Source: an uncultured delta proteobacterium
Lineage (GTDB): Bacteria; Desulfobacterota; Binatia; UBA9968
Direction of reading: 5' to 3'
DNA length: 64,000 bases
Assembly (NCBI GenBank): GCA_963737905.1
Contig: CAVTUQ010000027.1
Coordinates: forward strand, 1-64,000
Made by a program: the position numbers and the translations under genes. Shown piece after piece: positions 2,547 to 22,640 of this stretch; the first letter of the stretch is position 1, and each line of letters begins with the position of its first letter. The notes under the pieces are model-generated. The model did no database searches and was not told the origin of the DNA. It saw nothing but the letters and a program-made list of their open reading frames with translations.

Positions 2547-2551
2547 AGTCA

Positions 2552-2623
2552 GAAACAGCCAAGCAGATCGGCCTGACGATTCCGCCGGAGGTGCTGGCGC
2601 GGGCGGACAGGGTCATCCGATGA
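2552..2623 (+). pseudogene. Orphan 3' tail of an ABC_sub_bind SBP gene
   Basis: Translates as ETAKQIGLTIPPEVLARADRVIR* with no upstream gene body. Confidence 0.85.
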
Positions 2624-2723
2624 CAGAGAATCAGAGAGTCAGAAGTCAACGGAGATCAGGAAACAATCTGATAGTCGCTGCACCTGCGCTTGGCCGTGCA
2701 TTTGGCTCTTCGCTCTATGCTCC

Positions 2724-3662
2724 ATGCTCCTTGCTCCGTGCTCTACAGTCGACGCGCAGCAGACGGGGAAAATCTTCCGCATCGGTTTCCTGGATACAAG
2801 CAATGCTTCCGGTATGGCGGTGCTCGTGGACGCTTTCCGGCAAGAGCTGGGCAAGCTTGGATGGATTGAGGGGAAGAATATCACTTTCGAGTACCGGTTC
2901 AGCGAGCAAAACTCTGAGCGCCTGCCTGAGCTTGCGGCGGATCTGGTTCGCCTTAAGGTTGACCTGATTGTGGTCACAGGTGGACCGGTGCCATTAACGG
3001 CAAAGAAAGCGACTAGCACAATTCCCATCGTGATGGCGAGCGGCAGCGACCCCGTGGGTGCAGGTTTGGTTGCTAGTCTGGCGCGACCGGGAGGCAATGT
3101 CACCGGGCTCACGAGTTTGAATCAAGAACTAATTACCAAAAGGCTAGAGGTGCTCAAGGACGCCGTACCTAAGCTCGGCCGAGTTGGACTTTTGCGGCCG
3201 TCGACGAGTAGCCAATTGAAAGAGATCAGGCGTGCGGCGCTGGCACTAAAGCTAACCTTGGAAGAAATCGATACTCAACCCGACCCCAAAGGCTTAGAGC
3301 GTGCCTTTCAAACCGCAAAGCAGAAACAGGTGGGCGCGATTATGACGGCGACGACTCGTCCGTTTTTCGCCGAAAGAAAGCGGATCGTGGAGCTTGCTGG
3401 CAAATACCGGTTGCCGGCTATTTATCCAGAGAAGGGGTTTGTCGATGAGGGCGGCCTCATGTCTTATGGTGCGGACTTCGATGACCTCTATCGGCGCGCC
3501 GCTACATACGTGGACAAGATCTTGAAAGGTGCCAAACCGGCTGATTTGCCGGTGCAGCAGGCAACGAAGTTTGAATTCGTGATCAACTTGAAGGCAGCAA
3601 AACAGATCGGTCTGACGATTCCGCCTAACGTGCTGGCGCGAGCGAACAAGGTGATCCGATGA
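2724..3662 (+). CDS. ABC_sub_bind family SBP, array copy 1 (subfamily A)
   Basis: SLARPGGNVTG, GGLMSYG and KILKGAKPADLPV motifs; true start probably ATG 2620 with indels in the leader. Confidence 0.9.
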   Translation: MLLAPCSTVDAQQTGKIFRIGFLDTSNASGMAVLVDAFRQELGKLGWIEGKNITFEYRFSEQNSERLPELAADLVRLKVDLIVVTGGPVPLTAKKATSTIPIVMASGSDPVGAGLVASLARPGGNVTGLTSLNQELITKRLEVLKDAVPKLGRVGLLRPSTSSQLKEIRRAALALKLTLEEIDTQPDPKGLERAFQTAKQKQVGAIMTATTRPFFAERKRIVELAGKYRLPAIYPEKGFVDEGGLMSYGADFDDLYRRAATYVDKILKGAKPADLPVQQATKFEFVINLKAAKQIGLTIPPNVLARANKVIR

Positions 3663-4690
3663 CAAAAATCAGAGGTCAGAAGTCAGAGATCAGCAAAGCC
3701 ACTGCGCTTGGTGCCATGGTCTTCGCTCTATGCTCCCTGCTCCTTGCTCCGTGCTCTTCAGTTCAGGGGCAGCAGCCAGCGAAAGTCCCCCGCATAGGTT
3801 TTCTGGATGGAAGCACTGCTTCCGGCATGGCAGTCCTCATCGATGCATTCCGGCAGGACATGAGCAAGCTTGGATGGATTGAGGGAAAGAATATCACCAT
3901 CGAGTACCGGTTTGGCGAGCAAAAGTCGGAACGCCTGCCGGAGCTTGCAGCGGACTTGGTTCGTCTCAAGGTCGACCTAATTGTGGTCGCAGCGACGCCG
4001 CCAGCGTTGGCGGCGAAGAAAGCGACTACTACTATACCGATTGTGATGGCGAACGCTGGGGACCCTGTGGCTGCAGGATTAGTTGCCAGTCTGGCACGGC
4101 CGGGAGGCAATATCACCGGGCTCTCCGGCTTATCGACCCAATTAAATACTAAAAGGCTAGAGATCCTCAAGGACGCAGTGCCGAAGCTCACCCGAGTTGG
4201 GCTCCTGCGGCCGAAGGGAGATAGCATCGCAAACGAGCTGCAACTAAAAGAACTCGTCGCTGCGGCTGTGGCATTGAAGCTGAAATTGGAGGAGATCGAG
4301 ACTCAACCCGACGCCAAAGGTTTAGAGAGCGCCTTTCAAACCGCAAAGCAGAAAGAGATGGGCGGGATGATGACGACTACTACGCGGCCTTATTTCGCCG
4401 AACGAAAGCGGATCGTTGAGCTTGCCGGCAAATACCGGTTGCCTGCTATTTACTTCCAGAAGGAGTTTGTAGATGAGGGCGGTCTCATGTTTTACGGGGC
4501 AGACTTCGATGATCTCTTTCGGCGCGCGGCTGTTTACGTCGACAAGATCTTGAAAGGCGCCAAGCCGGCCGATTTGCCGGTCCAGCAGGCGACAAAGTTT
4601 GAGTTTGTGATCAACTTGAAGGCAGCGAAACAGATTGATTTGACAATTCCACCTGAGGTGCTCGCGCGGGCGAATAAAGTGATTCGGTGA
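3659..4690 (+). CDS. ABC_sub_bind family SBP, copy 2 (subfamily A)
   Basis: Same motifs, signal peptide, ATGA overlap with copy 1. Confidence 0.92.
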   Translation: MTKIRGQKSEISKATALGAMVFALCSLLLAPCSSVQGQQPAKVPRIGFLDGSTASGMAVLIDAFRQDMSKLGWIEGKNITIEYRFGEQKSERLPELAADLVRLKVDLIVVAATPPALAAKKATTTIPIVMANAGDPVAAGLVASLARPGGNITGLSGLSTQLNTKRLEILKDAVPKLTRVGLLRPKGDSIANELQLKELVAAAVALKLKLEEIETQPDAKGLESAFQTAKQKEMGGMMTTTTRPYFAERKRIVELAGKYRLPAIYFQKEFVDEGGLMFYGADFDDLFRRAAVYVDKILKGAKPADLPVQQATKFEFVINLKAAKQIDLTIPPEVLARANKVIR

Positions 4691-4779
4691 GGGATGAAGG
4701 GTAAGGGGTAAGGCGATAGGAAAAGACTATGGATCTGCGATTTTGGACAAGGGCAAATGAGAACTGACGAAACGATTAG

Positions 4780-5232
4780 TTATCGCTTTGCTTGGCGTGC
4801 GAGCCGGAGGAGAAACTGCCTCACAGAAACGACTCGGACTCGATTCCGCCGCGCCATTTTGATCAAATCGAGGTCGCGTTTAAGATCATCGTCTCTGGTA
4901 ACCAAGTATTGCGCTTTGCCGCCAATCGCGGCTTCGACGATCTGGTCGTCATCGGGATCGCGGCATATTTGGAGTTCGCCCGATGTCCGCACGACTGTCG
5001 CCCGAGCCGCGATCAATCGAACAAATGCCTCTGCGTCCCGCTGGGGATACCTGAACCGTCGGACCAGTCGCGGTCTGCTGAGAACTTCTGCGATTTCGCT
5101 GAGCTGTGAGAGCGACGTGACAATACTGAACTCATCATCCGCCCAGGCGGCAACGACTTGTCCAGGAGGTCCATTCGGCTTGAGGAAGGCGGAAACCCAG
5201 ACGTTGGTGTCAAGCAGAGCGGCGAGCGGCAC
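4780..5232 (-). CDS. PIN-domain toxin (TIGR00305-like)
   Basis: LLDTNVWVSA, CRDPDDD and LVTRDDDL motifs. Confidence 0.9.
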   Translation of the reverse strand: MPLAALLDTNVWVSAFLKPNGPPGQVVAAWADDEFSIVTSLSQLSEIAEVLSRPRLVRRFRYPQRDAEAFVRLIAARATVVRTSGELQICRDPDDDQIVEAAIGGKAQYLVTRDDDLKRDLDLIKMARRNRVRVVSVRQFLLRLARQAKR

Positions 5233-5488
5233 GGCGTTTGGCCTTGACCTCCGCTCTCGCTCGAGTCACTTCCGCTTCAATAGCGTTTTGCGGTGTCGCT
5301 TTAGTACGAGCTTTCATTCTCCCCAACACGCGGTCAAACTCGTTTCGCCACCGGCGCTCGGGGTAAAGCGTGATCAGGACGCGGGACTGCTCCTTCAGCC
5401 GAAGAGGTCGGAGCGGTTTCAGCACACCTTTCTCATACACGGCTCTAACCGTCTCTTCGACAGGATGAATTTTTTTTGGCAACGCCAT
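5210..5488 (-). CDS. DUF104/AF2212-like antitoxin
   Basis: VRAVYEKGVLKPLRPL motif; overlaps the toxin start; ATG at 5488. Confidence 0.8.
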   Translation of the reverse strand: MALPKKIHPVEETVRAVYEKGVLKPLRPLRLKEQSRVLITLYPERRWRNEFDRVLGRMKARTKATPQNAIEAEVTRARAEVKAKRRAARRSA

Positions 5489-5546
5489 AAAGCGGATTAT
5501 ACCGGCCCGTCCTAGCTCCGGCAAGCGGAGACGATGGTCAGAGTTC

Positions 5547-5579
5547 GTGCTGGCGCGGATGGGCAAAGTGATCAAGTGA
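5547..5579 (+). repeat. Orphan SBP 3' tail after the TA cargo
   Basis: gtgctggcgcggatgggcaaagtgatcaagtga = VLARMGKVIK*. Confidence 0.75.
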
Positions 5580-5582
5580 ATC

Positions 5583-5705
5583 GATTTTAGATTTTTCGAT
5601 TGCCGATTTTAGATTGGGGAGTCAGGAGAAAAACAGGAAGAAAAAAGTTGGGATGCGGGTCTTTGTCCGGGAATAATCCAAAATCTAAAATCCAAAATCG
5701 AAAAT
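5583..5705. repeat. Heptamer inverted-repeat leader, type L1
   Basis: gattttagatttttcgattgccgattttagatt ... aatccaaaatctaaaatccaaaatcgaaaat. Confidence 0.85.
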
Positions 5706-6679
5706 GGGGTGGGTTTGTCGCCATCGTTGTCACATTCGCAATATGCGGGGCGGAGGTGCTGGCGCAGCAGCCGAACGAAAGTCCCCCGGATAGGATATCT
5801 ACAGGTTACCCCTTCCTCAGCTAGTCACGGCCCGTACCGAGGCTTTCCGGCAGGGTCTGCGCGAGCTTGGTTACATGGAGGGGAAAAACATTGTCATTGA
5901 GTAGCGATATGCGGAGGGAAAGACTGATCGACTCCCGCGCTTGCGGCCGAGCTAGTGCGTCTCAAGGTAGAAGTCATCGTCACGAGCGGTCCGACAGTAA
6001 CCCGTGCTGCCAAGGAAGCAACTGTTACGGTTCCCATCGTCATGGCGTTCGATAATGATCCTGTTGGCAACGGGTTCGTCGTTAGCCTTGCGCGACCTGG
6101 CGGGAACATCACTGGCTTGTCCACACTTGCCCCGGAGATAAGCGGAAAACAAGTGGAGCTTCTGAAAGAGATCGTTCCCAAGCTCTCCCGCGTGGCCGTT
6201 CTCGGGACTTCAACGAACCCGGGCAACGCACAAGCGTTAAAAGAGATCGAACTCGCCGCCGGGGCGTTCAGGGTGCAGCTTCAGCACCTAGACGTACAAG
6301 GTGGGAAGGATATTGAGACGGCATTCCGAGCCGCGAGCAAGGGGCGTGCTGATGCAGTCCTGGTGCTGGCGGGCCCCGTCCTCGTTCTAACCGAAAACAA
6401 GTCATAGACCTCGCGGTAAAGAACCGGCTCCCTGCGATGTACTACAGGAGAGAATTTGTGGAAGACGGCGGGCTAATGAGCTACGGGGTGAACTTTGCGG
6501 ACTTGGACCGGCGCGCAGCCACGTATGTCGACAAAATCCTGAAAGGCGCCAAGCCTGCCGATCTGCCGGTAGAGCAGCCGACGAAGTTCGAGTTCATCAT
6601 CAATCTGAAAGCGGCCAAGCAAATCGGCCTGACGATTCCGCCGAATGTGCTGGTGCGGGCGGATCGGGTGATCAAGTGA
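5620..6679 (+). pseudogene. ABC_sub_bind SBP copy 3 (subfamily B), several frameshifts
   Basis: ORF pieces 5709, 5955 and 6437 are collinear with copy 13 (19874); start approximate. Confidence 0.8.
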
Positions 6680-6732
6680 CTGCGGTCGGCAGTCAGCGAT
6701 CAGTTGTCAGCAAAAACATCGGTGACAAATTC

Positions 6733-7718
6733 GTGACGAAAAATCCATTCTCTTCTGGTTACTGGCAACTGCCCTTCTAATTTCTGCTCCCGCCGCCGAA
6801 GCGCAGCAGGCGGCGAGAATTTCCCGGATAGGACTTCTGATCAACATCCCCGCGTCTGTCCAATCGACCCAGGTCGAAGCATTTCGCCGACGGCTGCGCG
6901 AGCTTGGCTATGTCGAAGGGAAAAACATTTTCATTGAGTACCGATATGCAGAAGGGAAACTCGAACGACTGCCTGACCTTGCAGCCGAGCTTGTCCGTCT
7001 GAAAGTTGACGTCATCGTCGCCTCCGCCCCTCGGGCTGTTTTCGCTGCTAAGAAAGCGAGCGCGACAATTCCCATCGTGTTCGCTGTTGCGACCGATCCA
7101 GTAGGACTTGGGCTTGTCTCCAGCCTGGCGCGTCCAGGCGGGAATATCACCGGACTTAGCCTCATGGCGCCGGATCTAGATGGCAAACGATTGGAATTGC
7201 TCAAGGAAGCTTTCCCCAAGGTTGCCCGGGTGGCCTTCCTCTGGTTCCCGGGTGCGCCGACGGGAAACCTAGTCCTCACAGAAATGGAAGCGGTGGCCAA
7301 GGCCTTAGGAGTCAAACTTCAATCGCTTGAGGTGCGAAGCCTTGACGATTTCGAGAGCGCATTCGCACGAGCGAAAAGGGAAGGCGCCCAGGCACTCATT
7401 ACGACCCCACATTCACTTATCACTAGTCAGCAACGCCAAGTGTTGGAGTTCGCGGCAAAGAACCGGTTGCCGGCGATGTACCACGCCCCTGAGTTTGTTG
7501 AGGCCGGCGGCTTGATGAGCTACGGGCCGAGCTTTACGGACTCATGGCGGCGCGCCGCCGACTTTGTCGACAAGATCTTGAAAGGCGCCAAGCCTTCCGA
7601 TCTTCCCGTGGAGCAGCCGAAGAAGTTCGAGTTCGTGATCAACCTCAAAGCGGCGAAGCAGATCGGCCTGACGATTCCGCCGAATGTACTGGCGCGGGCA
7701 GATCGGGTCATAAGATGA
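6733..7718 (+). pseudogene. ABC_sub_bind SBP copy 4, with a 1-nt indel in an A-run just after the start
   Basis: The 7077 frame stays open back through the signal peptide (KSILFWLLATALL); GTG 6733 is one base out of frame at aaaaa 6739-6743; likely a sequencing error. Confidence 0.8.
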
Positions 7719-7764
7719 CATTTTAGATTTTCGATTGCCGATTTTCGATTACGAAAGGAAATAC

Positions 7765-8163
7765 ATGGATGAAAACTTGTTTAAGCGACGGACGAAGCAG
7801 CTAGCACTGCGTGTTATCAAAGCTGTCGAAGTTCTGCCCAAGAACCGGACTGCGGATGTAATAGGTAGGCAGTTGATCCGATCTGGCACTTCGATCGGCG
7901 CTAACTATCGAGCAGCATGTCGCGGCAAGTCCACCGCGGATGTCATTGCCAAGCTTCGTATAGTTGAAGAAGAGGCAGATGAATCAGCTTACTGGATGGA
8001 ACTATTAATTGAATCGGGTCTCGTATCTGAGGCCCGGCTGTCGGAGTTGATGCAGGAAACCAACGAGATCGTCGCAATGACGGTGGCATCGATAAGGACT
8101 CTTCAGAAACGTAACGGAAATCCTCCGATCAATCGGCAATCTAAAATCGAAAATCTAAAATAG
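7765..8163 (+). CDS. Four helix bundle protein (TIGR02436 / 23S rRNA IVP family)
   Basis: GRQLIRSGTSIGANYRAA and EEEADESAYWMELL motifs; aaagga RBS before ATG 7765. Confidence 0.92.
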   Translation: MDENLFKRRTKQLALRVIKAVEVLPKNRTADVIGRQLIRSGTSIGANYRAACRGKSTADVIAKLRIVEEEADESAYWMELLIESGLVSEARLSELMQETNEIVAMTVASIRTLQKRNGNPPINRQSKIENLK

Positions 8164-8170
8164 GCGGGGT

Positions 8171-9158
8171 ATGAAACGCTTCGTTGGACTCTTTGCAATC
8201 TTTGTGACTCTGGCCCCTTGTGGGGCGGTGGCCGTGGCGCAGCCGCCGAAGAAAGTCCATCGAATAGGGTATCTATCGTCGGCCGATGCAGCTCGTGACT
8301 CCGCCCGTGCGGAGGCAATTAGGCTGGCTCTGCGCGAGCTTGGTTACATAGAAGGACAGAACATCGCCAGCGAGTACCGATATGCGGAGGGGAAGCGCGA
8401 TCGGGACCCTGAGCTTGCCGCCGAGCTGGTGCGTCTCAAGGTTGATATCATCGTGGTAGGAGGAGGGGACACGCCGGTCCGGGCGGCCAAGAATGCGACT
8501 AAGACGATTCCCATCGTTATGGTGGGTGCTGGGCTCGATCCTGTCAAGGCCGGACTGGTTGAAAGCCTTGCCCGTCCCGGCGGCAACGTCACCGGCATTA
8601 CTTGCCAGAGAACTAGGCGGGAAGCGGCTGGAGCTGCTCAAAGAAGCGGTTCCCAAACTTGCCCGTGTCGCGGTTTTCTACGATCCGGCCGCTCCGTCCC
8701 CTGTACACGAGGTGAAAGAGGTTCTCCCAGTGGCGGCGCGCGCGCTGGGGTTGACTATTCGGTCTTGGGAGATACGCGGTGCGGACGATTTCGAGAAAGT
8801 GTTCGCTGCGCTCAACAAGCAGCCCCCCGATGGACTCTACGTGACCGGAGGAACCCTGATGAATATTAACCGAAAACGGATCGTCGGCTTTGCGTTAAAG
8901 AGCCGGTTACCGTCGGTGTACGGCGACAGAAGAGCTGTAGAGGCTGGTGGACTCATGTCCTACGGCGCGGACCTAGTGGACAGCTACCGGCGCGTCGCAT
9001 ATTTCGTGGACAGGATCCTGAAGGGAGCCAAGCCTGCGGATCTGCCTGTGGAGCAGCCGACGAAGTTCGAGCTCGTGATCAATCTGAAAACTGCGAAACA
9101 GATCGGCCTGACGATTCCGCCGAATGTGTTGGCGCGGGCGGACAAGGTCACAAAATAG
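8171..9158 (+). pseudogene. ABC_sub_bind SBP copy 5 (subfamily C), frameshift near 8600
   Basis: ORFs 8171 and 8493 join after GGNVTGIT. Confidence 0.85.
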
Positions 9159-9305
9159 CAAGGAGCAGGAGTAAGGGATGGAGCCAGAAAACCACAGAAG
9201 AACAATGAGGAAACAATTCTTTGATATGTCGTTTGCACTCTACGCTTAGCTCGTAACATTTTCCCGCCATGGTCTTCGCTCTATGCTCCATGCTCCTTGC
9301 GCTTT
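9159..9305. repeat. Heptamer inverted-repeat leader, type L2
   Basis: caaggagcaggagtaagggatggagcc ... tcgctctatgctccatgctccttgc; near-identical at 11309 and 20858. Confidence 0.85.
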
Positions 9306-10257
9306 GCAGTTCCGTCGACGCGCAGCAGACAGGGAAAATCTTCCGCATAGGTTTTCTGGATGGAAGCACTGCTTCCGGCATGGCGGTCCTCATCGATGCA
9401 TTCCGGCAGGAGATGGGCAAGCTTGGATGGATTGAGGGAAAGAATATCACAATCGAATATCGATTTGGAGAGAACAAAGGCACTGAGCGCAGACCTGATC
9501 TTGCGGCGGAGTTGGTTCGACTTAAGGTTGATCTGATCGTGGTCACAGCGACGCCGGTGGCATTGGCGGTCAAGAAAGCGACTACTACAATCCCTATCGT
9601 GATGGCGAGCGGTTTGGACCCCGTTGCTGCAGGTCTGGTTGACAGTCTGGCGCGGCCGGGAGGCAATGTCACAGGGTTAACGAGTTTAGCAACCGAGCTT
9701 AACACCAAAAGGCTCGAGATACTCAAGGACGCAGTCCCCAAGCTCAGCCGCGTTGGGCTTCTGCGGCCTGCGGAGACGGGACGCGATAGATCAATAGCAT
9801 TAAACCTCCAACTGAAAGAGCTCAGGGCTGCGGCTCCGGCATTGAAGCTTAAATTGGAGGAGATCGGGACTCAATCCGACCCCAAGGTTTAGAGAGCGCT
9901 TTTCAAACCGCCAACCAGAAGCACGTCGGCGCAATGATGACGATCAGCTCTCCCCGATTTTTCGCCGAAAGAAAACGCATCGTCGCGCTTGCCGGCAAAT
10001 ACCGGTTGCCGGCTATTTACCACCAGAAGGGGTTTGTCGATGAGGGAGGTCTCATGTCCTACGGGGCGGACTACGATGACCAATATCGGCGCGCCGCTGT
10101 TTACGTAGACAAGATCTTGAAAGGCGCCAAACCCGCTGATTTGCCGGTGCAGCAGGCAACGAAGTTTGAATTCGTCATTAACCTTAAAGCGGCAAAACAG
10201 ATTGATTTGACAATTCCACCCGATGTGCTCGCGCGGGCGAACCGTGTGATTAAGTAG
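9269..10257 (+). pseudogene. ABC_sub_bind SBP copy 6 (subfamily A), frameshift near 9884
   Basis: cccaagg here versus cccaaagg in paralogs; ORFs 9269 and 9934. Confidence 0.85.
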
Positions 10258-10307
10258 CAGGGAGCATGGAGCAAAGAGCAGGGAGCTTTAAGAACACGAG
10301 GAAACTC

Positions 10308-11308
10308 ATGAAAAGAAAAGTCTATGGTCTTACCCTTTGCGTTTTGCTCTTTGCGCTAAGCGAATCCGCCCCGGCGCAGCAGCCGAAAAAAATCCCTCTG
10401 ATAGGGTATCTATCGTCGAATGTGCCAGCTAGAGCTAGTGATTCCACGCGTATCGAGACAATTCGGCTGGCGCTGCGCGAGCGTGGCTACATAGAAGGAC
10501 AGAACATCGGCTTCGAATACCGATATGCAGAGGGGAAGCGCGATCGGTATGCCGAGCTTGCGACCGAGCTGGTGCGTCTCAAGGCTGATATCATCGTGGT
10601 CGCAGGAGGGGCACCGCGGTTCGCGCAACCAGGAATGCGACCAAGACGATTCCCATCGTTATGACGGGCGCAGGGTCCGATCCTGTTAAGGCGGGCCTAG
10701 TTGAAAGTCTTGCGCGACCCGGCGGCAACGTCACCGGCCTGACAAACCTTGCCATAGACCTGGGCGGGAAGCGGCTGGAGCTGCTCAAAGAAGTGGTTCC
10801 CAAACTCGCCCGTGTCGCGGTTCTCTACGATGTGACCAACCCGGCCAATGTAATCGAGGTGAAAGAGGAGCTCTCAGTGACGGCGGGCGCGCTGCGGTTG
10901 ACTCTTCAGCCTTGGGAGGTGCGAACTGCCGACGATTTCGACCGGGTGTTCGCTGCGATAGGCAAGCAGCGCCCGGATGGACTCTATGTGTCCAGCGCGG
11001 GTCGGCTAATGCGTGGTAACAGGAAACGGATCGTCGGCTTTGCGTTAAATAGCCGGTTACCGTCATTGTACCAGAACAGAGACTTTGTAGATGCCGGTGG
11101 GCTGATGTCCTACGGGGCTGACTTCGCGGAAAGCCACCGGCGCGTCGCATATTACGTGGACAGAATTCTCAAGGGGGCCAAGCCGGCGGATCTGCCGGTG
11201 GAGCAGCCGACGAAATTCGAGTTTGTCATCAATCTGAAAACTGCCAAGCAGATCGGCCTTACGATTCCGCCGAACGTGGTGGCAAGAGCGGACAAGGTCA
11301 TAAAATAG
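10308..11308 (+). pseudogene. ABC_sub_bind SBP copy 7 (subfamily C), frameshift near 10610-10630
   Basis: ORFs 10266 and 10661 are collinear with copy 14. Confidence 0.85.
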
Positions 11309-11360
11309 CAGGGAGCAGGGAGCTAAGGGCAGGGAGCCAGAAAAATACACGGGAGAACCA

Positions 11361-12394: not shown

Positions 12395-12428
12395 GCAATA
12401 GGCATGAGCAACAATAGGAGAGAAATCC

Positions 12429-14494: not shown

Positions 14495-14679
14495 GGCGTA
14501 AAGGGTAAAGGACAAGGAGCGAGGCGAGCAATGATGGAACTGAGATCCTTCGCTTTTGTTCAGGACAAGTTTTGGATTGGGAGAACCAAGCCCGTGGAGA
14601 GAACATCTTGCTCCAGAGTTTTGAATATTCACTGCGGCAATCGAGTAGGCTCAGCGGAAAAACAAAAGGGGAACCGATT

Positions 14680-15636
14680 ATGAGACGTCTAGTTTACGCT
14701 TCGCTGTTGCTATCGCTTTCTGGTTTAGTTCTGTGCGTACCGGTTCGGGCGGCGGATAAGATTCGAATCGGTTTACCTGCGGACGCCGGGCACTTCACTT
14801 TCCCTTTGGCGCAGAAAAGAGGGTTCCTAAAAGAGGAAGGATTTGACGCCGAGCTCATTACGATCACGGGCCCTGTGGCGAATATTGCCCTAAGTAACGG
14901 AGGCATTGACTACTATATGGGCTTTGGCTCCGGCATGCGGTCGATGCTTCAGGGATTGCCGGCCCGGATCGTCGCCTGCTACCGGCCCTTGCCGCATTTT
15001 GTGCTGCTGGGTCGGCCGGAGCTTAAATCAGTCAAAGATCTCAAGGGGAAGATCATCGGGGTCAACATTGGCGGAGGTCCCGATCTAGTGGCTCGATTGA
15101 TAATCAAACACTTTGGCCTAGATCCGGATAAGGACATGAAGTTTGTTGCCAGCGGTGGGAACGAAGGCGCTTTTGCTAGAATGAAGCAGGGCCTGATCGA
15201 TGCTACGTCGGCGCCTGTCCCTTGGGATTACCGCGCCAAGAAGATGGGCTTTATTGTCCTTGCCAGAGCCGAAGAACTCTTTACCTACCCGATCAGTGGC
15301 GTGGTAGCTCACACCAAAAAGATCAAAGACAAGCCGGATGAGATCAAGCGGCTCATCAGGGCGGGAATCAAAGCCAACCGCTACATGCGCGAGAATCGCG
15401 AGGGAACCATCCCGATTCTAATGAGCACCTATAGACTCGATCAAGAGGCCGGCACCGCGCTCTATGACTCTTTCGTGAAGGGATTCAATAACGACGGCAG
15501 CTTGCCGGAGGACGGATTCCGCAGACTCATTGAGGATACGAAGAGGGTGACGAAGGTAGATCGCGAGGTTGCCATAAGCGAAGTTGCCGATCTCTCGATT
15601 CTTAGAGAGGCCCAGAAGGAGCTAGGAATCAAATGA
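14680..15636 (+). CDS. NitT/TauT (SsuA/THI5-like) ABC SBP
   Basis: AQKRGFLKEEG and SVKDLKGK motifs, signal peptide. Confidence 0.88.
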   Translation: MRRLVYASLLLSLSGLVLCVPVRAADKIRIGLPADAGHFTFPLAQKRGFLKEEGFDAELITITGPVANIALSNGGIDYYMGFGSGMRSMLQGLPARIVACYRPLPHFVLLGRPELKSVKDLKGKIIGVNIGGGPDLVARLIIKHFGLDPDKDMKFVASGGNEGAFARMKQGLIDATSAPVPWDYRAKKMGFIVLARAEELFTYPISGVVAHTKKIKDKPDEIKRLIRAGIKANRYMRENREGTIPILMSTYRLDQEAGTALYDSFVKGFNNDGSLPEDGFRRLIEDTKRVTKVDREVAISEVADLSILREAQKELGIK

Positions 15637-15715
15637 TTTTCGATCCTTCGGCGGAGTTTATTGTGAGTACAAGCGGAAGGGCTCGGGACAGGTTTTGGAT
15701 TGGGAGTAACAAAAA

Positions 15716-16669
15716 ATGAATAAGATATTTGTGGCGTTGCTGACGATTTTTCTTACTCAAACCTCGGTTCAAGCGACGGACAAGATCAGGATCAGCACGC
15801 CCGGCGACGCCGCCCACTTCACCATACATTTAGCGCAGAAGAGAGGGTTTCTAAAAGAAGAAGGATTCGACGCCGAGGTGATTGTAATCTCAGGTCCGGT
15901 GGCGAACGTGGCCCTTAGTAACGGCGACACCGATTACTTCAGCGGTTTTGGCTCTGCGCTACGTTCCATCCTGCAAGGTTTGCCGCTTCGGATCGTTGCC
16001 TGCTATCGACCGACCCCACATTTCATGTTGCAGAGCCGTCCCGAGTTCAAATCCGTCAAGGATCTTAAGGGGAAGACCATCGGCATCACTGCATACGGCA
16101 GCGGCACCGAACTGGTCGGACGCATGATGATCAAGCACTTCGGCCTCGATCCGGACAAGGATGTGAAGTTTGTTCCCGGAGGTTCGGGCGAAGGTCGTTA
16201 TATAAGAATGCAGCAGGGTTTGCTCGATGCCACGATCGCGACTGTCCCAACGGAATATATTGGCAGGAAGATGGGCTTTCCGGTCATTGTACGGTCGGAA
16301 GAACTCTTTACCTATCCCTTCAGCGGGCTGACGACTTCGATCAGGAAGATCAAAGCGAAGCCCGACGAGGTCAAGCGCGTAATTCGCGCCGGCATCAAAG
16401 CCAATCGTTACATGCGCGCAAACCGCGACGGCACCATACCGGTACTGCTGAGCACGTATAGGATCGACAAAGAGGTTGCCGCAGCGGCCTATGATTCTTT
16501 CACTAAGGGCTTCAACCTCGACGGCAGCATGCCGGAGGACGGTTTCCGGCGGCTCCTCGACGACACCAAGAGAATTATGAAAATAGATCGAGAGGTTGCG
16601 TTGAGTGAAGTAGAGGATCTTTCGATTCTCCGGGAAGCACAGAAGGAGCTTGGGATAAAGGAAAAATAG
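15716..16669 (+). CDS. NitT/TauT ABC SBP paralog
   Basis: Closely similar to 14680. Confidence 0.9.
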   Translation: MNKIFVALLTIFLTQTSVQATDKIRISTPGDAAHFTIHLAQKRGFLKEEGFDAEVIVISGPVANVALSNGDTDYFSGFGSALRSILQGLPLRIVACYRPTPHFMLQSRPEFKSVKDLKGKTIGITAYGSGTELVGRMMIKHFGLDPDKDVKFVPGGSGEGRYIRMQQGLLDATIATVPTEYIGRKMGFPVIVRSEELFTYPFSGLTTSIRKIKAKPDEVKRVIRAGIKANRYMRANRDGTIPVLLSTYRIDKEVAAAAYDSFTKGFNLDGSMPEDGFRRLLDDTKRIMKIDREVALSEVEDLSILREAQKELGIKEK

Positions 16670-16710
16670 ACGAAAACTTCTTCAAACAGAATTCGGCAAG
16701 GAGATGCCCT

Positions 16711-17658
16711 ATGAACAAGTGTCTTGTGGCGTTACTCACGGTTTTTCTCCCCTACACGTCAGTGAATGCGGCGGACAAGGTCCGAATCAGTATTTCTAAC
16801 TTGAGTGGTCAGTTTATGACTTTCCCTCTGGCACACAAACGAGGCTTCCTCAAAGAAGAGGGAATCGAGACCGAGATAATCCGTGTTACCGGAGGGGCAG
16901 GCAGTGCGGCGTTGAGCAGTGGAGATCTGGATTACGGTACCGGGATGGCGGTTGGGGGCGCGATAACGGGGGCATTACCCGTCAAGGTAGTTGCCTGCTT
17001 CGTGCCGGCTCCAGTTTTCGCACTGGTTGCGCGCCCCGAGGTCAAAACAGTCCAAGAGCTTAAAGGCAAAACCGTCGGAATTTCTACGTTTGGTGGTCTA
17101 TCCATCTTTGGAGCGCGGGTTATAGCCAAGCACTTTGGTCTTGACCCCGATAAGGATGTGAAGTTCGTCGCCATTGGCGCAGTCGAGGCTCGTTTTATCA
17201 GGCTCACCCAGGGCTTGGTCGATGCGACCATGCTTGCTCCCCCCTTGGACTCCGAGGCGAAGAAGAAGGGGTTCAATATTCTTGCCAGAGCCGAGGATAT
17301 CCTCATCTTCCCCGAGACGGGTTTAGTAACCGGTGTGAAGAAAATCCAAGAGAAGGCCGATGAAATCAAACGCGTCATCAAGGCGGGTATTAGAGCCAAT
17401 CGCTATATTCGCACAGATCGCGACGGTACCATTCAGTTCATCATGGAATGGCTGAAGGTCAATCGAGAGGTTGCCACGGCCACTTACGACGGCGTGTTCA
17501 GGGTCTACAACGAAGATCCAGCCATCTGCGAAAAGGGGCTGCGCGTGATGATTGAAGAGAGAAAGCAGACTTTGAAAATTACCCGCGATGTACCGCTGAG
17601 CGAAGTGGCGGATCTATCCCTCCTCAGAGAGGTACAGAGGGAGATGGGGATTAAATAA
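16711..17658 (+). CDS. NitT/TauT ABC SBP paralog
   Basis: Same motifs (HFGLDPDKDVKFV). Confidence 0.9.
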   Translation: MNKCLVALLTVFLPYTSVNAADKVRISISNLSGQFMTFPLAHKRGFLKEEGIETEIIRVTGGAGSAALSSGDLDYGTGMAVGGAITGALPVKVVACFVPAPVFALVARPEVKTVQELKGKTVGISTFGGLSIFGARVIAKHFGLDPDKDVKFVAIGAVEARFIRLTQGLVDATMLAPPLDSEAKKKGFNILARAEDILIFPETGLVTGVKKIQEKADEIKRVIKAGIRANRYIRTDRDGTIQFIMEWLKVNREVATATYDGVFRVYNEDPAICEKGLRVMIEERKQTLKITRDVPLSEVADLSLLREVQREMGIK

Positions 17659-17694
17659 GTTCGACGTCGGTTTCCAACCGCACATTAGCGAATC

Positions 17695-17721
17695 GCGCGG
17701 ATAGATCGGGTCATCAGATGA
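17695..17721 (+). repeat. Orphan SBP 3' tail after the NitT/TauT cargo
   Basis: gcgcggatagatcgggtcatcagatga = ARIDRVIR*. Confidence 0.7.
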
Positions 17722-18737
17722 CAGAAGTCAGATGTCAACAAAGATCGAAAAAAACCATGAGCAAGAAAATCATTGGTTTTGCTATATGCTCCCTGCTCCT
17801 TGCTCCCTGCTTTCCATCACCGGCGCAGCCGCAGGCAAAGGTATCTAAGATCGGCCTTCTCAGGGCTCGGCTCTCCGCTTCAGGCACCTCGCTGGACGCA
17901 TTGGTTCGAGAACTCCGCGCAATCGGCTATGTCGAGGGCAAGAACATAGCGTTCGACTCTCGATCCGCTGAAAACAAACTCAACCGGCTCCCCGCCCTAG
18001 CTGACGAGTTGGTCCGTCTCAAAGTCGATGTACTGATCGCACCCGCGATGGAGGAAGCTTTAGCCGCTAAGAGCGTTACTAGGACAATTCCCGTCGTTTT
18101 TTTAAGCGGGGGCGATCCTGTTGCATCGGGACTAGTTGACAGCCTCGCGCGACCTGGGGGAAACATTACAGGGTTCACCTCAATTTCGACGGTGTTATCT
18201 GGCAAACGATTGGAGATACTCAAGGAAACCATTCCCAAGCTCTCCCGCGTTGCGGTGTTGTGGGATCCATTGGTTTCAAGTACTGCGCAACAATGGAAAG
18301 AAAGCCAGCTGCCGGCACGAGAACTGGGCTTGCAGCTCTATTCCATGGAAATCAGCAGCGTCGACAAATTTGAAAGCGCGTTTAAGGAGGCGATTAAAGC
18401 AGGGAGCACTGCTCTCGTCGTGGTCGGGGGTCCGTTGATCACTTCTAACCGAAAACGGATCGCGGAGCTGGCGATAAAAAGCCGGCTACCGACAATGTAC
18501 CCAGATATCCGCTATGCAAACGCTGGTGGCTTGATGTCCTACGGGGCTGATCGGACCGAACCCTATAGGCGCATAGCGTCGATGGTTGATAAGATTCTAA
18601 AAGGCACCAAGCCCGCCGATATTCCGGTCGAGCAGCCGACGAAGTTTGAGCTGATCATCAATCTCAAAGCCGCCAAGCAGATCGGCCTGACGATACCGCC
18701 GAATGTGCTTGTGAGAGCAGATAAGGTCATTAGGTGA
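17718..18737 (+). CDS. ABC_sub_bind SBP copy 11
   Basis: Intact, family motifs; alternative start ATG 17757. Confidence 0.92.
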   Translation: MTEVRCQQRSKKTMSKKIIGFAICSLLLAPCFPSPAQPQAKVSKIGLLRARLSASGTSLDALVRELRAIGYVEGKNIAFDSRSAENKLNRLPALADELVRLKVDVLIAPAMEEALAAKSVTRTIPVVFLSGGDPVASGLVDSLARPGGNITGFTSISTVLSGKRLEILKETIPKLSRVAVLWDPLVSSTAQQWKESQLPARELGLQLYSMEISSVDKFESAFKEAIKAGSTALVVVGGPLITSNRKRIAELAIKSRLPTMYPDIRYANAGGLMSYGADRTEPYRRIASMVDKILKGTKPADIPVEQPTKFELIINLKAAKQIGLTIPPNVLVRADKVIR

Positions 18738-18774
18738 TTCGAGATTTTCGATTTTAGAGTGGGGAGAAAAACAA

Positions 18775-19829
18775 ATGCACAAGAAATTTCGAATTCGGTT
18801 TGGTTTCTCTCGCTCCGACAATCGGAAATTTAAAATCGAAAATCTAAAATGGGCGGTGGTTGTTGGAATCCAGGTCTTGATTTTTGGGTGTGTGGGAATG
18901 GCTCAGGCGCAGCAGCCAGCGAAAGTCGCCCGCATTGGTTTCCTGGATCCAGGCACTGCTTCCGGTAGCGCGAGTCTCTTGGAGGCGATGCGGCAGGAGA
19001 TGAGCAAGCTTGGATGGATCGAGGGAAAGAATATCACCATCGAGTTCCGGTTTGCGGATCAAAAAATTGAGCGCCTACCTGACCTTGCGGCAGACCTAGT
19101 GCGTCTGAAGGTAGACGTGATCGTTACGGGTGGTTCGGGACCAACGCGTTCCGCTAAGGAAGCAACTGTGACGATTCCCATTGTCATGGCGCAGGATCCC
19201 GATCCTGTGGGCAATGGGTTCGTCACCAGCCTTGCGCGGCCGGGAGGCAATGTCACCGGGCTGTCAGGTTTAACGAACGAGCTAAGTACCAAAAGGCTAG
19301 AGATACTCAAGGACACGGTGCCCAAGCTCGCCCGAGTTGGACTTTTGCTTGCACCGGGAAACAGCATAACAAGAGAACTTGAACTGAAAGATCTCAGGCC
19401 CGCGGCGCTGGCACTGAAGCTCAAATTGGAGGAAATCGAGACTCAATCCGACGCCAAAGGTTTAGAGAGCGCCTTTCAAACCGCAAAGCGGAAGCAGGTC
19501 AATGCGATTATGACGTCCTCCAGTCGCTCCATTTTCGGCGAAAGAAAACGGATCGTCGAGCTTGCCGGCAAACATCGGTTGCCAGCCATTTACTTGCAGA
19601 AGGAGTTTGTCGATGAGGGCGGCCTCATGTTCTACGGGGCGGACTATACTGACCTCTTTCGGCGCGCGGCTGTTTACGTGGACAAGATTTTGAAAGGTGC
19701 CAAACCGGCTGATTTGCCGGTGAGCAGGCAACGAAGTTTGAGTTCATCATCAACTTGAAGGCAGCGAAACAGATTGATTTGACAATTCCACCTGAGGTGC
19801 TAGCCCGGGCGAATCGGGTCATTAAATGA
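18775..19829 (+). pseudogene. ABC_sub_bind SBP copy 12 (A/B/A mosaic), 1-nt frameshift near 19722
   Basis: ccggtgagcagg here versus ccggtgcagcagg; conserved tail ends at TGA 19829. Confidence 0.85.
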
Positions 19830-19873
19830 CAGTGAGCGGTGGGCAGTGAGCAGCAAAAACGGGAGCAAAGCGC

Positions 19874-20857
19874 ATGATCAAACAAATTCCTATCTGTTTA
19901 CTGCTAACTGTCTTGCTGATAACCGTCTCTTCCACTGAGGCGCAGCAGGCAACGAAAGTCCCGCGAATTGGTTATCTAACTGGTGCCACGCGTGACGGTC
20001 AATCGGCCCGCATCGAGTCTTTCCGGCAGGGTCTGCGCGAGCTTGGGTACCTAGAGGGAAAAAACATTGTCATTGAGTATCGATACGCGGAAGAAAAACA
20101 AGATCGCCTCTCCGCACTGGCGGCCGAGTTAGTGCGTTTAAAGGTTGATGTAATCGTTACGGGTGGGGGTGGAAATACTCGTGCTGCTAAAGAAGCAACC
20201 AATACGATTCCCATTGTCATGGCGCAGGATAGCGATCCTGTCGGCAATGGGTTCGTAGGCAGCCTGGCGCGGCCTGGAGGAAACATCACGGGACTGTCCA
20301 ACCTTTCCCCGGAGATAAGTGGCAAACAACTAGAGCTTCTGAAGGAGATCGTTCCTAAACTCTCACGCGTGGCCGTCCTCGGGACTTCAACCAACCCCGC
20401 TAACTCGCCACAGCTAAGAGAGCTTGAACTCGCTGCCGGGGCGCTCAACGTGAAGCTTCAATACCTGGGCGTACTAGGTCCTAAGGATATTGAAACTGCA
20501 TTTCGAGCCTTAACCAAAGGGAGTGCCGACGCAGTCCTTGTGCTGCCAGGCCCCATCTTCAATTCTAATCGATCACAAATTGCCAAACTTGCAGTAAAGA
20601 GCCGGCTCCCGGCGATTTATAGCCATTCACGGTACGTCATAGACGGGGGACTTATGACATACGGCGTGAACCAGGCCGACTTGGACCGGCGCGCTGCAAC
20701 CTATGTGGACAAGATCCTGAAAGGCGCCAAGCCTGCCGATCTACCGGTGGAGCAGCCCAAGAAGTTCGAGTTCGTCATCAATCTCAAAGCGGCGAAGCAA
20801 ATCGGCCTGACGATTCCGCCGAATGTGCTCGCGCGGGCTGATCGGGTCATAAAATAG
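19874..20857 (+). CDS. ABC_sub_bind SBP copy 13 (subfamily B)
   Basis: Intact, family motifs. Confidence 0.93.
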   Translation: MIKQIPICLLLTVLLITVSSTEAQQATKVPRIGYLTGATRDGQSARIESFRQGLRELGYLEGKNIVIEYRYAEEKQDRLSALAAELVRLKVDVIVTGGGGNTRAAKEATNTIPIVMAQDSDPVGNGFVGSLARPGGNITGLSNLSPEISGKQLELLKEIVPKLSRVAVLGTSTNPANSPQLRELELAAGALNVKLQYLGVLGPKDIETAFRALTKGSADAVLVLPGPIFNSNRSQIAKLAVKSRLPAIYSHSRYVIDGGLMTYGVNQADLDRRAATYVDKILKGAKPADLPVEQPKKFEFVINLKAAKQIGLTIPPNVLARADRVIK

Positions 20858-20909
20858 CAGGGAGCAGGGAGCTAGGGGCAGGGAGCCAGAAAAACACACG
20901 GGAGAACTA

Positions 20910-21953
20910 ATGGGGAAACAATTCTCTGATATGTCGCTTGGCACTCTGCGGTTAGCCCTTAGCATTCTTGCCGCCACGTTCTTCGCTCTTTGCTCCCTGC
21001 TCCTCGCTTCATGCTCTACAGTCGCCGCACAGCAGCCGAAGAAAGTCTCGCGGATAGGGTATCTATCAAATGCCGATCCAGCTACTGAGTCCACCCGTTC
21101 CGAGGCAATTCAGCAAGCTCTGCGCAAGCTTGGCTACATAGAAGGACAGAACATCGCCACCGAGTACCGATATCTGGAGGGGAAGAATGAGCGGGCTCCT
21201 GAGCTTCTGGCCGAGCTGGTGCGTCTCAAGGTTGATATCATCGTGGCAGCAGGAGGGCGCATTCCGGTCCGCGCGGCCATGAATGCGACCAAGACGATTC
21301 CCATCGTTATGATGGGCGCTGGGCTCGACCCTGTCGAGGCAGGCGTAGTGGAAAGCCTTGCCCGTCCCGGCGGAAACGTCACCGGAATTACAAACCTTAC
21401 CGGAGAACTGGGCGGCAAGCGGCTGGAGCTGCTCAAAGAAGCCGTTCCCAAACTTGCCCGTATCGCGGTTCTGACCGATCCGGCCACTCCGGTCAATGTA
21501 CACGAGGTGAAAGAAGTTCTCCCAGTCGCGGCGCGCGCGCTGAAGTTGACTATTCAGCCGTGGGAGGTACGAGATTCGGACGGTTTCGAGAAGGTATTCG
21601 CTGCGCTGAGTAAGGAGCGCCCGGATGGACTCTACGTGCCTGGGAGCCCGCTAATGGGTGCTAACCGAAAACGGATCGTGGGCTTTGCGTTAAAGAGCCG
21701 GATACCGTCGATGTACAGCCTCAGAGGATATGTAGAGGCCGGCGGGCTCATGTCCTACGGGGCGGACCTCGCGGACAGCTACCGGCGCGTCGTATATTTC
21801 GTGGACAGAATCCTGAAGGGTGCCAAGCCTGCTGATCTGCCGGTGGAGCAACCGACTAAGTTTGAGCTGGTGATAAATCTAAAGACGGCGAAGCAGATCG
21901 GCGTGACAATTCCGCCGAACGTGCTGGCGCGGGCGGATAGAGTCATTCGGTGA
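20910..21953 (+). CDS. ABC_sub_bind SBP copy 14 (subfamily C)
   Basis: Intact, L2 leader in frame. Confidence 0.93.
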   Translation: MGKQFSDMSLGTLRLALSILAATFFALCSLLLASCSTVAAQQPKKVSRIGYLSNADPATESTRSEAIQQALRKLGYIEGQNIATEYRYLEGKNERAPELLAELVRLKVDIIVAAGGRIPVRAAMNATKTIPIVMMGAGLDPVEAGVVESLARPGGNVTGITNLTGELGGKRLELLKEAVPKLARIAVLTDPATPVNVHEVKEVLPVAARALKLTIQPWEVRDSDGFEKVFAALSKERPDGLYVPGSPLMGANRKRIVGFALKSRIPSMYSLRGYVEAGGLMSYGADLADSYRRVVYFVDRILKGAKPADLPVEQPTKFELVINLKTAKQIGVTIPPNVLARADRVIR

Positions 21954-21999
21954 AGAGAATGCAACAGTAGGGATTTCAAGTCGCCGTGCCGATCCACTG

Positions 22000-22350
22000 C
22001 TAACCGACAAACCCGTCCACCGGGATCAAGCGTTTGCCGACGGGATCGACGGCGAGGAAAAGACTTTCGAGAGCGACGGCGCCGAGCAAGGCTGGACCCT
22101 CCGGCGCAATAAAGCATGGAGTCGTGATTGCATCGCCATTCAGAGCCAACCGTGCTTCGGCTATGGGCCAGACCTCTCGCTGTCCGCCCGCGATCACGAC
22201 GCGTTGGGAGCGAGTGGCTTTCAGCTCAAGCCTTTCCGCTAGCGATCGTGGCACCACGCTAAGCGTAGCGCCAGTGTCCACAAGAAGCTCAACTTCTTCA
22301 ACACGTCCCGTCGGACCGGTCAGATGGCCCTTTACGTGGAACAGTCCCAT
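22000..22350 (-). CDS. Clan AA (retropepsin-like) aspartyl protease, AF_0612-like
   Basis: LVDTGAT catalytic motif and ALLGAVALE. Confidence 0.88.
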   Translation of the reverse strand: MGLFHVKGHLTGPTGRVEEVELLVDTGATLSVVPRSLAERLELKATRSQRVVIAGGQREVWPIAEARLALNGDAITTPCFIAPEGPALLGAVALESLFLAVDPVGKRLIPVDGFVG

Positions 22351-22430
22351 ATCCAAAGCCTGCTCAAAAACATGGCCATTGTAGCGCAGCCAACAAACAA
22401 CGCAACAACACTGACAGAGGGAAAATCATG

Positions 22431-22455
22431 GTGAGCGGACAAGGTCGTCAAATGA
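22431..22455 (+). repeat. Orphan SBP 3' tail after the protease cargo
   Basis: gtgagcggacaaggtcgtcaaatga = ..ADKVVK*. Confidence 0.7.
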
Positions 22456-22640
22456 TTTTCGATTGAGGAGTAAAGAATGAATAGAAGATCTTGGGTGCGA
22501 TGGCTGGATTCTTTTTCCGACAATCGGAAACCTGTCCTGCCTTCGATAAACTCGGGCCCCGAGCCTGTCGAGGGGAGCCACAGCGAAGGATCGGAAACCT
22601 GTCCTGGGCGAAGCCGAAGGATCGAAAATCCAAAATTTAA
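22454..22640. repeat. Terminal empty L1 leader with nested REP-like insertions
   Basis: gattttcgatt ... ccgacaatcggaaa[insert]atcgaaaatccaaaat; no SBP body follows. Confidence 0.7.

Follow-up and report, generated by a model that had tools for sequence, protein, structure and literature searches.

Introduction

Sedentary chromosomal integrons carry long same-strand arrays of cassettes, among which toxin–antitoxin (TA) modules are interspersed and often inverted. In Neisseria, minimal mobile elements are cassettes exchanged by homologous recombination in conserved flanking genes. Islands that target transfer RNA genes, as well as e14 and phage 21 in icd, use the 3′ end of a gene as their target and carry a replacement for that end. 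Large families of orphan solute-binding proteins (SBPs) are known from Bordetella, as exemplified by Bug/TctC. Here, we describe a locus that resembles each of these systems in part: an array of PF04392 (ABC_sub_bind) SBP genes near the start of contig C27 (CAVTUQ010000027.1) of an uncultured delta proteobacterium, in which blocks of non-SBP genes (hereafter cargo) are followed by short copies of the SBP gene's 3′ end without a gene body (hereafter orphan tails). The window that we analysed is the first 64 kb of this contig. To our knowledge, neither cargo slots nor orphan tails have been described for families of orphan binding proteins, and a full-text literature search for PF04392 returned no paper on such arrays, as judged by title or the start of the abstract.

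Like chromosomal integrons, the locus is a same-strand array with repeat-bounded mixed cargo, interspersed inverted TA modules and cargo that differs between relatives. Unlike integrons, it has no integrase adjoining the array and no attC-like fold; what recurs is the 3′ coding end of genes that belong to a resident family, paralogues of a single gene make up most of the units, and the fragments are not constant, their lengths being 23–77 nucleotides (nt) within the window and anywhere from 0 to ~250 nt behind homologous cargo. With the minimal mobile elements of Neisseria the locus has in common recombinase-less cargo that appears to be exchanged via flank homology, and perhaps different cargos between similar flanks. 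Here, however, the flanks are short pieces of a family of more than 100 copies, the exchange seems to cross genera, and natural transformation is not known for this organism. Because the flanks come from such a paralogue family, one cargo has many possible slots and arrays can build up. We regard it as most likely that the locus is a variant form of flank-homology cassette exchange.

As in elements that target 3′ ends, a unit would supply a new 3′ end, giving a chimeric left tail, and leave the displaced end as an orphan on its far side. Such elements bring their own integrase and recombine at a fixed core, whereas the TA unit described below contains only toxin and antitoxin open reading frames (ORFs) and no integrase; the units here are 0.5–1 kb long, and junctions vary among them. 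The likeness to Bug/TctC lies in the number of binding-protein genes, from dozens to more than 100, for which few cognate transporters exist. In one report (PMC13617665), TA modules are described as clustering in high-turnover regions, behaving as selfish units and eroding, and their acquisition is linked to transposases and integrases; here, by contrast, the modules sit in an array of paralogues, and pieces of that array's own genes mark the limits of the units.

Orphan tails in the window

The window belongs to a metagenome-assembled genome (G000) of 6.7 Mb in 46 contigs (54.5% G+C; estimated contamination 6.7%). All four orphan tails in the window are real. The first (2546..2623, + strand), ~77 nt long, forms the left edge of the array and was detected both by nhmmer (E 7.9e-17, profile positions 13–89) and, over amino acids (aa) 305–327, by a protein hidden Markov model (HMM). 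The second (5533..5579, +) has a core of 33 nt (5547–5579), or ~47 nt with its decayed 5′ part, and ranks at ~1e-5 in a search with an anchored position-specific scoring matrix (PSSM). Anchored PSSM scoring also identified the third (17661..17721, +), a decayed 61-nt remnant with a 26-nt internal deletion and a 28-nt core at 17695–17721, and the fourth (22431..22455, +), which is ~23 nt long and scores 23.8 over 21 nt, a value reached by 90 of 13.4 million positions.

The anchored test determines whether the stretch directly before a leader matches the tail, and is the test suited to the claim. Each of the four orphans falls within the top ~1e-5 of the 13.4 million genome positions, with 12–164 positions scoring as high per orphan, ~100 of which are true tails; it is on this rank that we accept all four. 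A scan with a nucleotide profile, as proposed in an earlier reading of this DNA from sequence alone (hereafter the initial annotation), was less complete: our 90-nt tail profile found the 14 full tails of the window and the orphan at 2546–2622 (E 8e-17), but genome-wide the orphans at 17693–17720 and 5546–5578 reached E values of only 22 and 53, and the one at 22431–22455 was not listed at E ≤ 100.

The initial annotation had placed an orphan tail, followed by a normal leader, after each of four cargo blocks. The tails themselves withstood the anchored test and a recognisable leader type follows all four, but the first block, a gene for a SAM-dependent methyltransferase (1623..2546, +; Pfam Methyltransf_11/25/31), is the upstream neighbour of the array and not mobile cargo. 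Its homologues in genomes G069 and G064 are 82–84% identical at the nucleotide level and have no SBP gene or tail near them, and the homology stops at the stop codon. The G069 locus has no neighbours in common with the window, and therefore cannot tell whether the whole array is an insertion.

A toxin–antitoxin unit with junctions inside the tails

The second orphan tail closes a TA unit on the minus strand that consists of a gene for a PIN_3 (VapC-like) toxin (4780..5232; Pfam PIN_3 E 1e-20) and an AF2212-like antitoxin gene (5210..5488; E 2e-12 on ORF 5210–5575, with a probable ATG at 5488 read from the sequence). A PIN-domain toxin gene after a small overlapping antitoxin gene is the layout of a VapBC-like type II pair. 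A heptamer-repeat leader of the gggtaag type (4691..4779, +) travels with the unit, being 82–93% identical between G000 and G038 and alignable in four genomes. To the left lie two intact PF04392 genes (2724–3662 and 3659–4690, +; Pfam E 4e-51 and 5e-49), the second of which is the left flank of the unit.

The toxin turned up in 16 of the 90 family genomes and in 11 of the 23 genera; the same-genus genomes G001 and G002 (93% and 89% complete) lacked a detectable copy. The closest toxins, all from other genera, are 95% (G038), 93% (G060, unpublished) and 91% (G035) identical at the amino acid level. The window's carboxylase gene, a single housekeeping gene that serves as the baseline, is 82–83% identical to its counterparts in these three genomes and 95% identical to that in G001. 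Synonymous divergence (dS) of the toxin gene is 0.18 between G000 and G038 and ranges from 0.18 to 0.23 among TA-block comparisons. The adjacent SBP gene (3659–4690) is 76% identical between G000 and G038 at the nucleotide level, with successive dS values of 1.07, 0.76, 0.65 and 0.88, of which 0.88 belongs to the terminal 30 codons. These divergence estimates show that the copies of the TA block descend from a far more recent common ancestor than the flanks do. A cargo that is younger than the flanks in which its boundaries lie is the pattern of flank exchange, and the TA block, patchily distributed as it is, looks to have been exchanged horizontally.

Identity between G000 and G038 is ~0.95 from 4683 to ~5545, ~0.70 in both flanking tails and 0.3–0.4 after the stop codon of the orphan tail. 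The block common to G000, G038, G035 and G060 extends from the last 12–21 nt of the left tail to approximately the first 15 nt of the orphan tail. All six pairs among these four genomes agree in every base of the left tail's final 12 nt, a 12-mer that ends only 5 of 113 tails in G000; at positions −60 to −22 of that tail, identity is 0.55. In the orphan tail, identity falls from 0.74 in the first 15 nt to 0.59 in the last 21 nt, and the leaders behind it are unrelated (0.26). The shared unit therefore begins within the left tail and stops within the orphan tail, and what lies outside it in either tail belongs to the local context. The left and right copies of the target 3′ end, directly duplicated around the TA unit, are thus chimeric. 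Parts of the four-genome comparison, and a ~95-nt remnant listed below, rest on the unpublished genomes G060 and G012; the comparisons with G038 and G035 are independent of them.

Elsewhere, an orphan tail in the same relative orientation follows the TA unit in 11 of 15 other loci. The remnants run from aa 246–252 to the end of the gene in G042, G082 and G036, and measure 117, ~95, 55, 47 and 33 nt in further loci; no tail was detected after the unit in the remaining four (G070, G003, G010 and G075). What lies 3′ of the SBP gene corresponding to 3659–4690 also differs: the PIN_3 TA unit in G000 and G038, a DUF5678 ORF with a 38-nt tail in G002, an SBP head, a protease gene and a tail in G005, and directly an SBP gene in G001, the orthology of this flank (80–82% identical at the nucleotide level) being insecure among so many paralogues. 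Orphan length therefore varies, as the initial annotation had expected of ordinary deletion scars, but the fixed unit order that it had also named as evidence against mobile units was not observed.

The tail is the best-conserved part of the gene

The initial annotation had described a conserved tail of ~33 nt; the conserved block in fact extends over ~150 nt. Among 52 intact paralogues, per-column identity is 0.68–0.73 in the last ~150 nt, 0.36–0.68 elsewhere in the gene and 0.35–0.46 past the stop codon. Exact runs of at least 20 nt, counted in 1326 paralogue pairs that were at most 90% identical, numbered 242, of which 99 (41%) have their centre within 100 nt of the gene's end and 123 within 200 nt of it. 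For conserved residues, synonymous codon identity is 0.47 over the 30 terminal codons, only slightly above the 0.39 of the body (p 0.02), and there is no invariant core. The tail is conserved mainly at the protein level. Because it codes for a conserved C-terminus, the tail is by far the longest near-identical DNA shared by the more than 100 paralogues.

Orphan tails and cargo across the genome and family

Using a protein HMM built from the intact copies in the window, we identified 123 SBP copies in G000: 56 intact, 25 full-length but broken, 21 3′-only, 15 5′-only, 3 internal-only and 3 internally deleted. They stand against nine BPD_transp_2 permease matches at four loci, one of which sits 3 kb from an array on contig C7. 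At E ≤ 0.01, a threshold that leaves out the three short tails of the window, we obtained 116 tails, comprising 88 with a body of at least 700 nt (a class that takes in a few orphans close behind a complete gene), two cut by contig ends and 26 remnants. Of the remnants, 21 are at most 225 nt long, and 22 end at profile position 88–89, the stop codon. The 5′-only remnants span 33–295 aa.

We scanned 31 ORFs just upstream of orphan tails elsewhere in G000, 11 of which had no family. Those of TA type encode PIN (C2), DarT and NADAR (C2), PIN_3 (C12 and C28), PIN (C29), and DUF6883 and PIN with RHH (C31); others encode an FGE-sulfatase, an enzyme of the phosphoglucomutase type and an amidohydrolase. 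Among the 30 PIN-domain genes, five have a tail no more than 500 nt away, compared with 0.46 expected, a ~ten-fold excess (binomial p 9e-5).

SBP matches were present in all 18 of the family genomes searched first, whereas none of the 7 genomes from the sister family (f3) gave one. The cargo-bearing arrays in G098:C283, G051:C188 and G060:C322 hold PIN, PIN_3, three MazF, DUF6036 nucleotidyltransferase, His_Phos_1 and rhodanese genes. In G098:C283, orphan tails of 44–80 nt close five of six cargo blocks, and in the unpublished G060:C322 three TA units follow one another, each closed by a tail. The arrangement of tail-closed cargo proves to be a family-wide organisation.

The protease unit and the re-pairing of remnants

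The last cargo of the window is the gene for a small retropepsin-like aspartyl protease (22000..22356, −; Pfam Asp_protease_2 E 2e-10), probably also mobile. Homologues occur in 16 of 90 genomes and 10 of 23 genera, reaching 96% amino acid identity in G036, and none was found in the same genus among the 90 family genomes searched. At 8 of the 17 other loci, the gene sits within an SBP array and has the same orientation, and an orphan tail follows it in six of these eight. The remnants behind it run from aa 283–291 to the end or measure 59 and 28 nt in other loci, and 23 nt in the window; two loci have none. In G005:C137, an SBP head (aa 3–68) is followed by the protease gene and a 28-nt tail.

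The shared left arm of the protease unit starts ~130–150 nt before the stop codon (G051 and G068), so that its junction coordinates, as aligned, differ from those of the TA family. The decayed 61-nt remnant after the NMT1 genes of the window (14572..17658) is the same remnant that follows the protease gene in G005, G051 and G068; remnant and upstream cargo have therefore been re-paired. Internal deletions occur in remnants.

How the tail-bounded units may have arisen

We consider it somewhat probable, at roughly 55%, that these patterns reflect homology-driven exchange at the tails followed by erosion of the remnants. The locus would be one of many fast-turnover arrays of orphan PF04392 genes, with slots for non-SBP cargo, mostly TA pairs plus small genes such as that for the aspartyl protease. 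The left edge of a slot would be the 3′ end of an SBP gene and its right edge the orphan 3′ remnant of another SBP gene. Homology-dependent recombination would use the tails as portable homology arms, through either a RecA-type pathway or short-homology break repair from an ectopic or incoming template. An excised circle may have entered through a single crossover, or incoming DNA through a double one. The signature seen at the TA unit is what would be left by a circle with a short tail copy that crossed over once, and equally by break repair or a double crossover in which the two tail pieces serve as arms. Cargo with its two tail pieces would move between arrays and genera, and the orphan remnant, non-functional once made, would erode from its 5′ side. 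TA modules would pile up since the redundant array tolerates them, and they may also resist loss. The recombination pathway, its intermediate and any benefit to the cell are what we infer here.

The initial annotation had taken the repeat unit to be a leader, any gene and a tail, with the tail acting as a recombination site comparable to those of integrons. Cargo blocks are indeed bounded by tails and recombination junctions lie in tails, but the integron-like or site-specific part of that proposal finds no support: there is no recombinase in or beside the arrays and no attC-like fold, and both remnants and junctions vary. RecA-type exchange in the conserved C-terminus, which it had given as an alternative, is the better fit.

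Several points weigh against homology-driven exchange. The youngest TA units carry ~33–47 nt of homology at 60–75% identity, which is a poor RecA substrate. In all four genomes the left junction lies within 12–21 nt of the stop codon, although a full SBP gene offers ~150 nt; clustering this tight fits a fixed site or a circle with a short tail copy. The right boundary of the protease unit (22394–22410) precedes its orphan tail, so that not all junctions are in tails. The closest genomes to G000 are only ~85% identical at the nucleotide level, which puts strain-level synteny out of reach, and the baseline divergence comes from one gene. The counts from relatives are not independent, because the loci were chosen through their cargo and share ancestry. 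Finally, we found no excised circles and no clean empty slots, in a check confined to the short metagenome contigs of four public runs, which carry no weight in either direction.

The short carried homology and the tight left junctions keep a bolder reading alive, one that we hold tentatively as a lesser possibility: the conserved coding tail of the SBP genes might be the attachment site of a gene-capture platform without an integrase. TA modules and other small genes, as units with a short tail copy, would insert Campbell-style into any of the more than 100 SBP tails, rebuilding the C-terminus of the gene and leaving an orphan tail, and the junction zone of the PIN_3 unit, −21 to −13, would be the crossover core for some enzyme or short-homology pathway. 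If so, a whole family of soil bacteria would have integron-like arrays that exchange cargo across genera.

Passive decay alone, in which cargo landed by unrelated means in a permissive array, orphan tails are deletion scars without a role in mobility and flank differences reflect turnover of neighbours, seems to us unlikely. In its favour, remnant lengths vary widely, 25 of the 123 copies are broken, and 15 5′-only and 3 internally deleted copies exist. The head–protease–tail layout in G005:C137 is what one would expect if cargo replaced a gene body, and an IS110-type element splits an SBP gene on C19. In addition, the tail is the most information-rich part of the gene and the only part in which very short remnants are detectable, which biases their ascertainment. 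PMC13617665 also reports that TA systems integrate preferentially into permissive, high-turnover regions. Random breaks in a ~1-kb gene, however, should leave long remnants, whereas 21 of 26 in G000 and 27 of 27 at the relatives' loci are at most 250 nt long. Decay also does not predict a ~95% identical TA block that has a tail at either end and is much more recent than its flank (dS 0.18 versus 0.65–1.07), chimeric left tails with an identical last 12-mer, or the three consecutive tail-closed TA units of the unpublished G060:C322.

We are more doubtful still about a dedicated site-specific system with its core in the tail, whether integron-like, Xer-like or served by a recombinase encoded elsewhere. 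The array is cassette-like and its TA modules often face the other way, a trait also of chromosomal integrons; in four genomes, both junctions of the PIN_3 unit fall between about −21 and −13 relative to the stop codon, the narrow clustering that one reciprocal crossover at a core would produce; and the carried homology is too short for efficient RecA recombination. By contrast, none of the 12 PF00589 matches in the genome is on C27 or in an array, the nearest lying 7–12 kb from an array (no IntI-specific model was run). Seven of eight tail–leader junctions fold no better as single-stranded DNA than shuffled sequences (z −1.27 to +1.94), the eighth having a z of −2.63. Synonymous identity, at 0.47 in the tail versus 0.39 in the body, reveals no invariant core, remnant starts are scattered over profile positions 1–62, and the protease unit has other junction coordinates and a right boundary outside the tail.

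It is very improbable that tails are retained as functional DNA for the next gene, be it as a promoter or through translational coupling by an ATGA stop/start overlap. Every remnant does keep its stop-proximal end and directly abuts a leader, and several stop codons overlap an ATG (ATGA), with ORFs 3659, 13394 and 17718 starting there. Against this, K alternates freely with R, and TGA with TAG, among the last codons, orphan tail 4 and two tails on C12 have no SBP gene behind them, and the young tail-bounded TA block would be left unexplained. A promoter in the tail was rejected from the bases alone, because the variability of the final codons leaves no room for a conserved −10 box. We also rejected a diversity-generating retroelement with the orphan tail as template repeat: no reverse transcriptase was present among the window ORFs scanned, and the differences between paired tails are not adenine-specific by eye.

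Misjoining of contigs at repeated tails can be dismissed almost entirely, even with 46 contigs, 6.7% estimated contamination and tails that are repeats, because a misjoin at a repeat gives a complete tail and not a partial one fused to non-SBP DNA, the cargo-plus-remnant layout recurs in independent assemblies of other genera, and a 668-nt contig crosses the TA unit, orphan tail and leader.

How TA modules and tiny recombinase-less genes move between chromosomes is poorly understood, and the locus offers a concrete case. Under homology-driven exchange, redundant gene arrays would act as platforms for capture and exchange without integron machinery. If confirmed, this would reveal a further way in which genes flow among uncultured soil bacteria and give a reason for TA modules piling up in arrays; for annotators, short orphan gene ends beside small genes could mark exchanged units and not noise.

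Reads and related metagenomes

A search of public runs indicated that soil metagenomes are the main source of sequence related to the window. The runs with sequence of the window comprised short soil-metagenome contigs only, containing at most 0.43 of the sampled words, and the read check covered four of these runs. The read joints listed have sides shorter than 30 nt and probably come from paralogues or other organisms. The 668-nt contig mentioned above, from run X1, covers 5054–5619 with four differences, and this run may be the source sample.

Gene content of the window and further observations

From 20 of the 29 + strand ORFs scanned between 1623 and 25843, we assembled 14 PF04392 gene copies, all on the + strand between 2724 and 21953; their matches lie above the Pfam cut-off, with E values of 1e-14 to 1e-57 for the copies or their pieces. 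Eight copies are plainly intact, one (6741–7718, +) is open without an obvious start, and five (5761–6679, 8171–9158, 9269–10257, 10266–11308 and 18775–19828, +) are broken by a frameshift or stop. No ATP-binding cassette (ABC) ATPase or BPD_transp_2 permease was found in 1–22700, and the sole ABC_tran match of the window is at 53625–54071. The initial annotation was thus right to describe 14 same-strand ABC_sub_bind paralogues without a permease or ATPase, five of which prove to be broken. Roughly a third of the PF04392 copies in the genome are broken or fragmentary.

To the right of the TA unit, nine SBP copies with heptamer-repeat leaders, four of them broken, occupy 5580..14494 (+). The three NMT1/THI5-type SBP genes (14572..17658, +; Pfam NMT1) come next, and paralogues of these genes adjoin PF04392 genes on C19 and in G002:C260. 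Four further SBP copies (17718..21953, +), including the frameshifted one at 18775–19828, precede the protease gene, and leader-like repeats without an SBP gene behind them (22456..22640, +) form the right edge of the array. Some genes of the window overlap or sit just 35 nt apart.

The leaders consist of tandem heptamer repeats of four types, namely cagaagt, cagggag, gattttc with its complement, and gggtaag; examples lie at 2624–2660, 5580–5710, 4691–4720 and 20858–20890. As array-specific sites they were rejected: the motifs occur mostly elsewhere, and only 17 of 82 matches of the gattttcgatt type follow a tail. A leader of the gattttc type (7722..8163, +) contains a 23S_rRNA_IVP gene (7765–8163; Pfam E 1e-17) with no orphan tail closing it. 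This fifth cargo, missed in the count of the initial annotation, lies inside the leader's inverted repeat: the gene, for a four-helix-bundle protein, occupies the loop of an inverted repeat of heptamer units, and its stop codon falls within the right arm. The layout recalls intervening sequences flanked by stem-forming repeats. A paralogue that is 82% identical at the nucleotide level lies on C7 (408464–408035), directly after another SBP tail.

A triplet recurs in several places: a variant SBP tail, a non-coding element of 30–70 nt resembling the right arm of the gattttc leader, and a second orphan tail of ~47 nt. In G000 we observed it on C7 (403615–403818 and 406931–407134), C29 (92938–93115 and 46161–46336) and C2 (486356–486521), with further sites on C42 (912–1082) and C37 (142377–142448) and in G036:C415 (~1324–1449 of the examined locus). 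It may be an empty slot or a small unit that spread with its gene.

A tail-bounded unit also occurs outside any array. At C12 104100–105000, a PIN_3 TA pair lies between orphan tails of 31 and 45 nt with no SBP body within 3 kb, and a small ORF precedes the first of these tails. On C2 (479105–480366), a minus-strand DarT/NADAR (DarTG-type) pair lies directly before a 78-nt orphan tail, which is followed by a 5′ fragment of an SBP gene.

Seven IS110-type transposases were identified in G000, one of which interrupts an SBP gene on C19: at 96139–98697, a frameshifted transposase gene, read from the other strand, splits the SBP gene at ~aa 270, and an NMT1-type SBP gene comes after the displaced 3′ part. 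In G051:C188, an ORF for a 546-aa reverse transcriptase (RVT_1, group II intron-like by size) lies beside the SBP array. In G075:C218 and G036:C415, homologues of the methyltransferase and of the aspartyl protease lie 1–2 kb apart, which suggests that islands of small genes recur in varied combinations.

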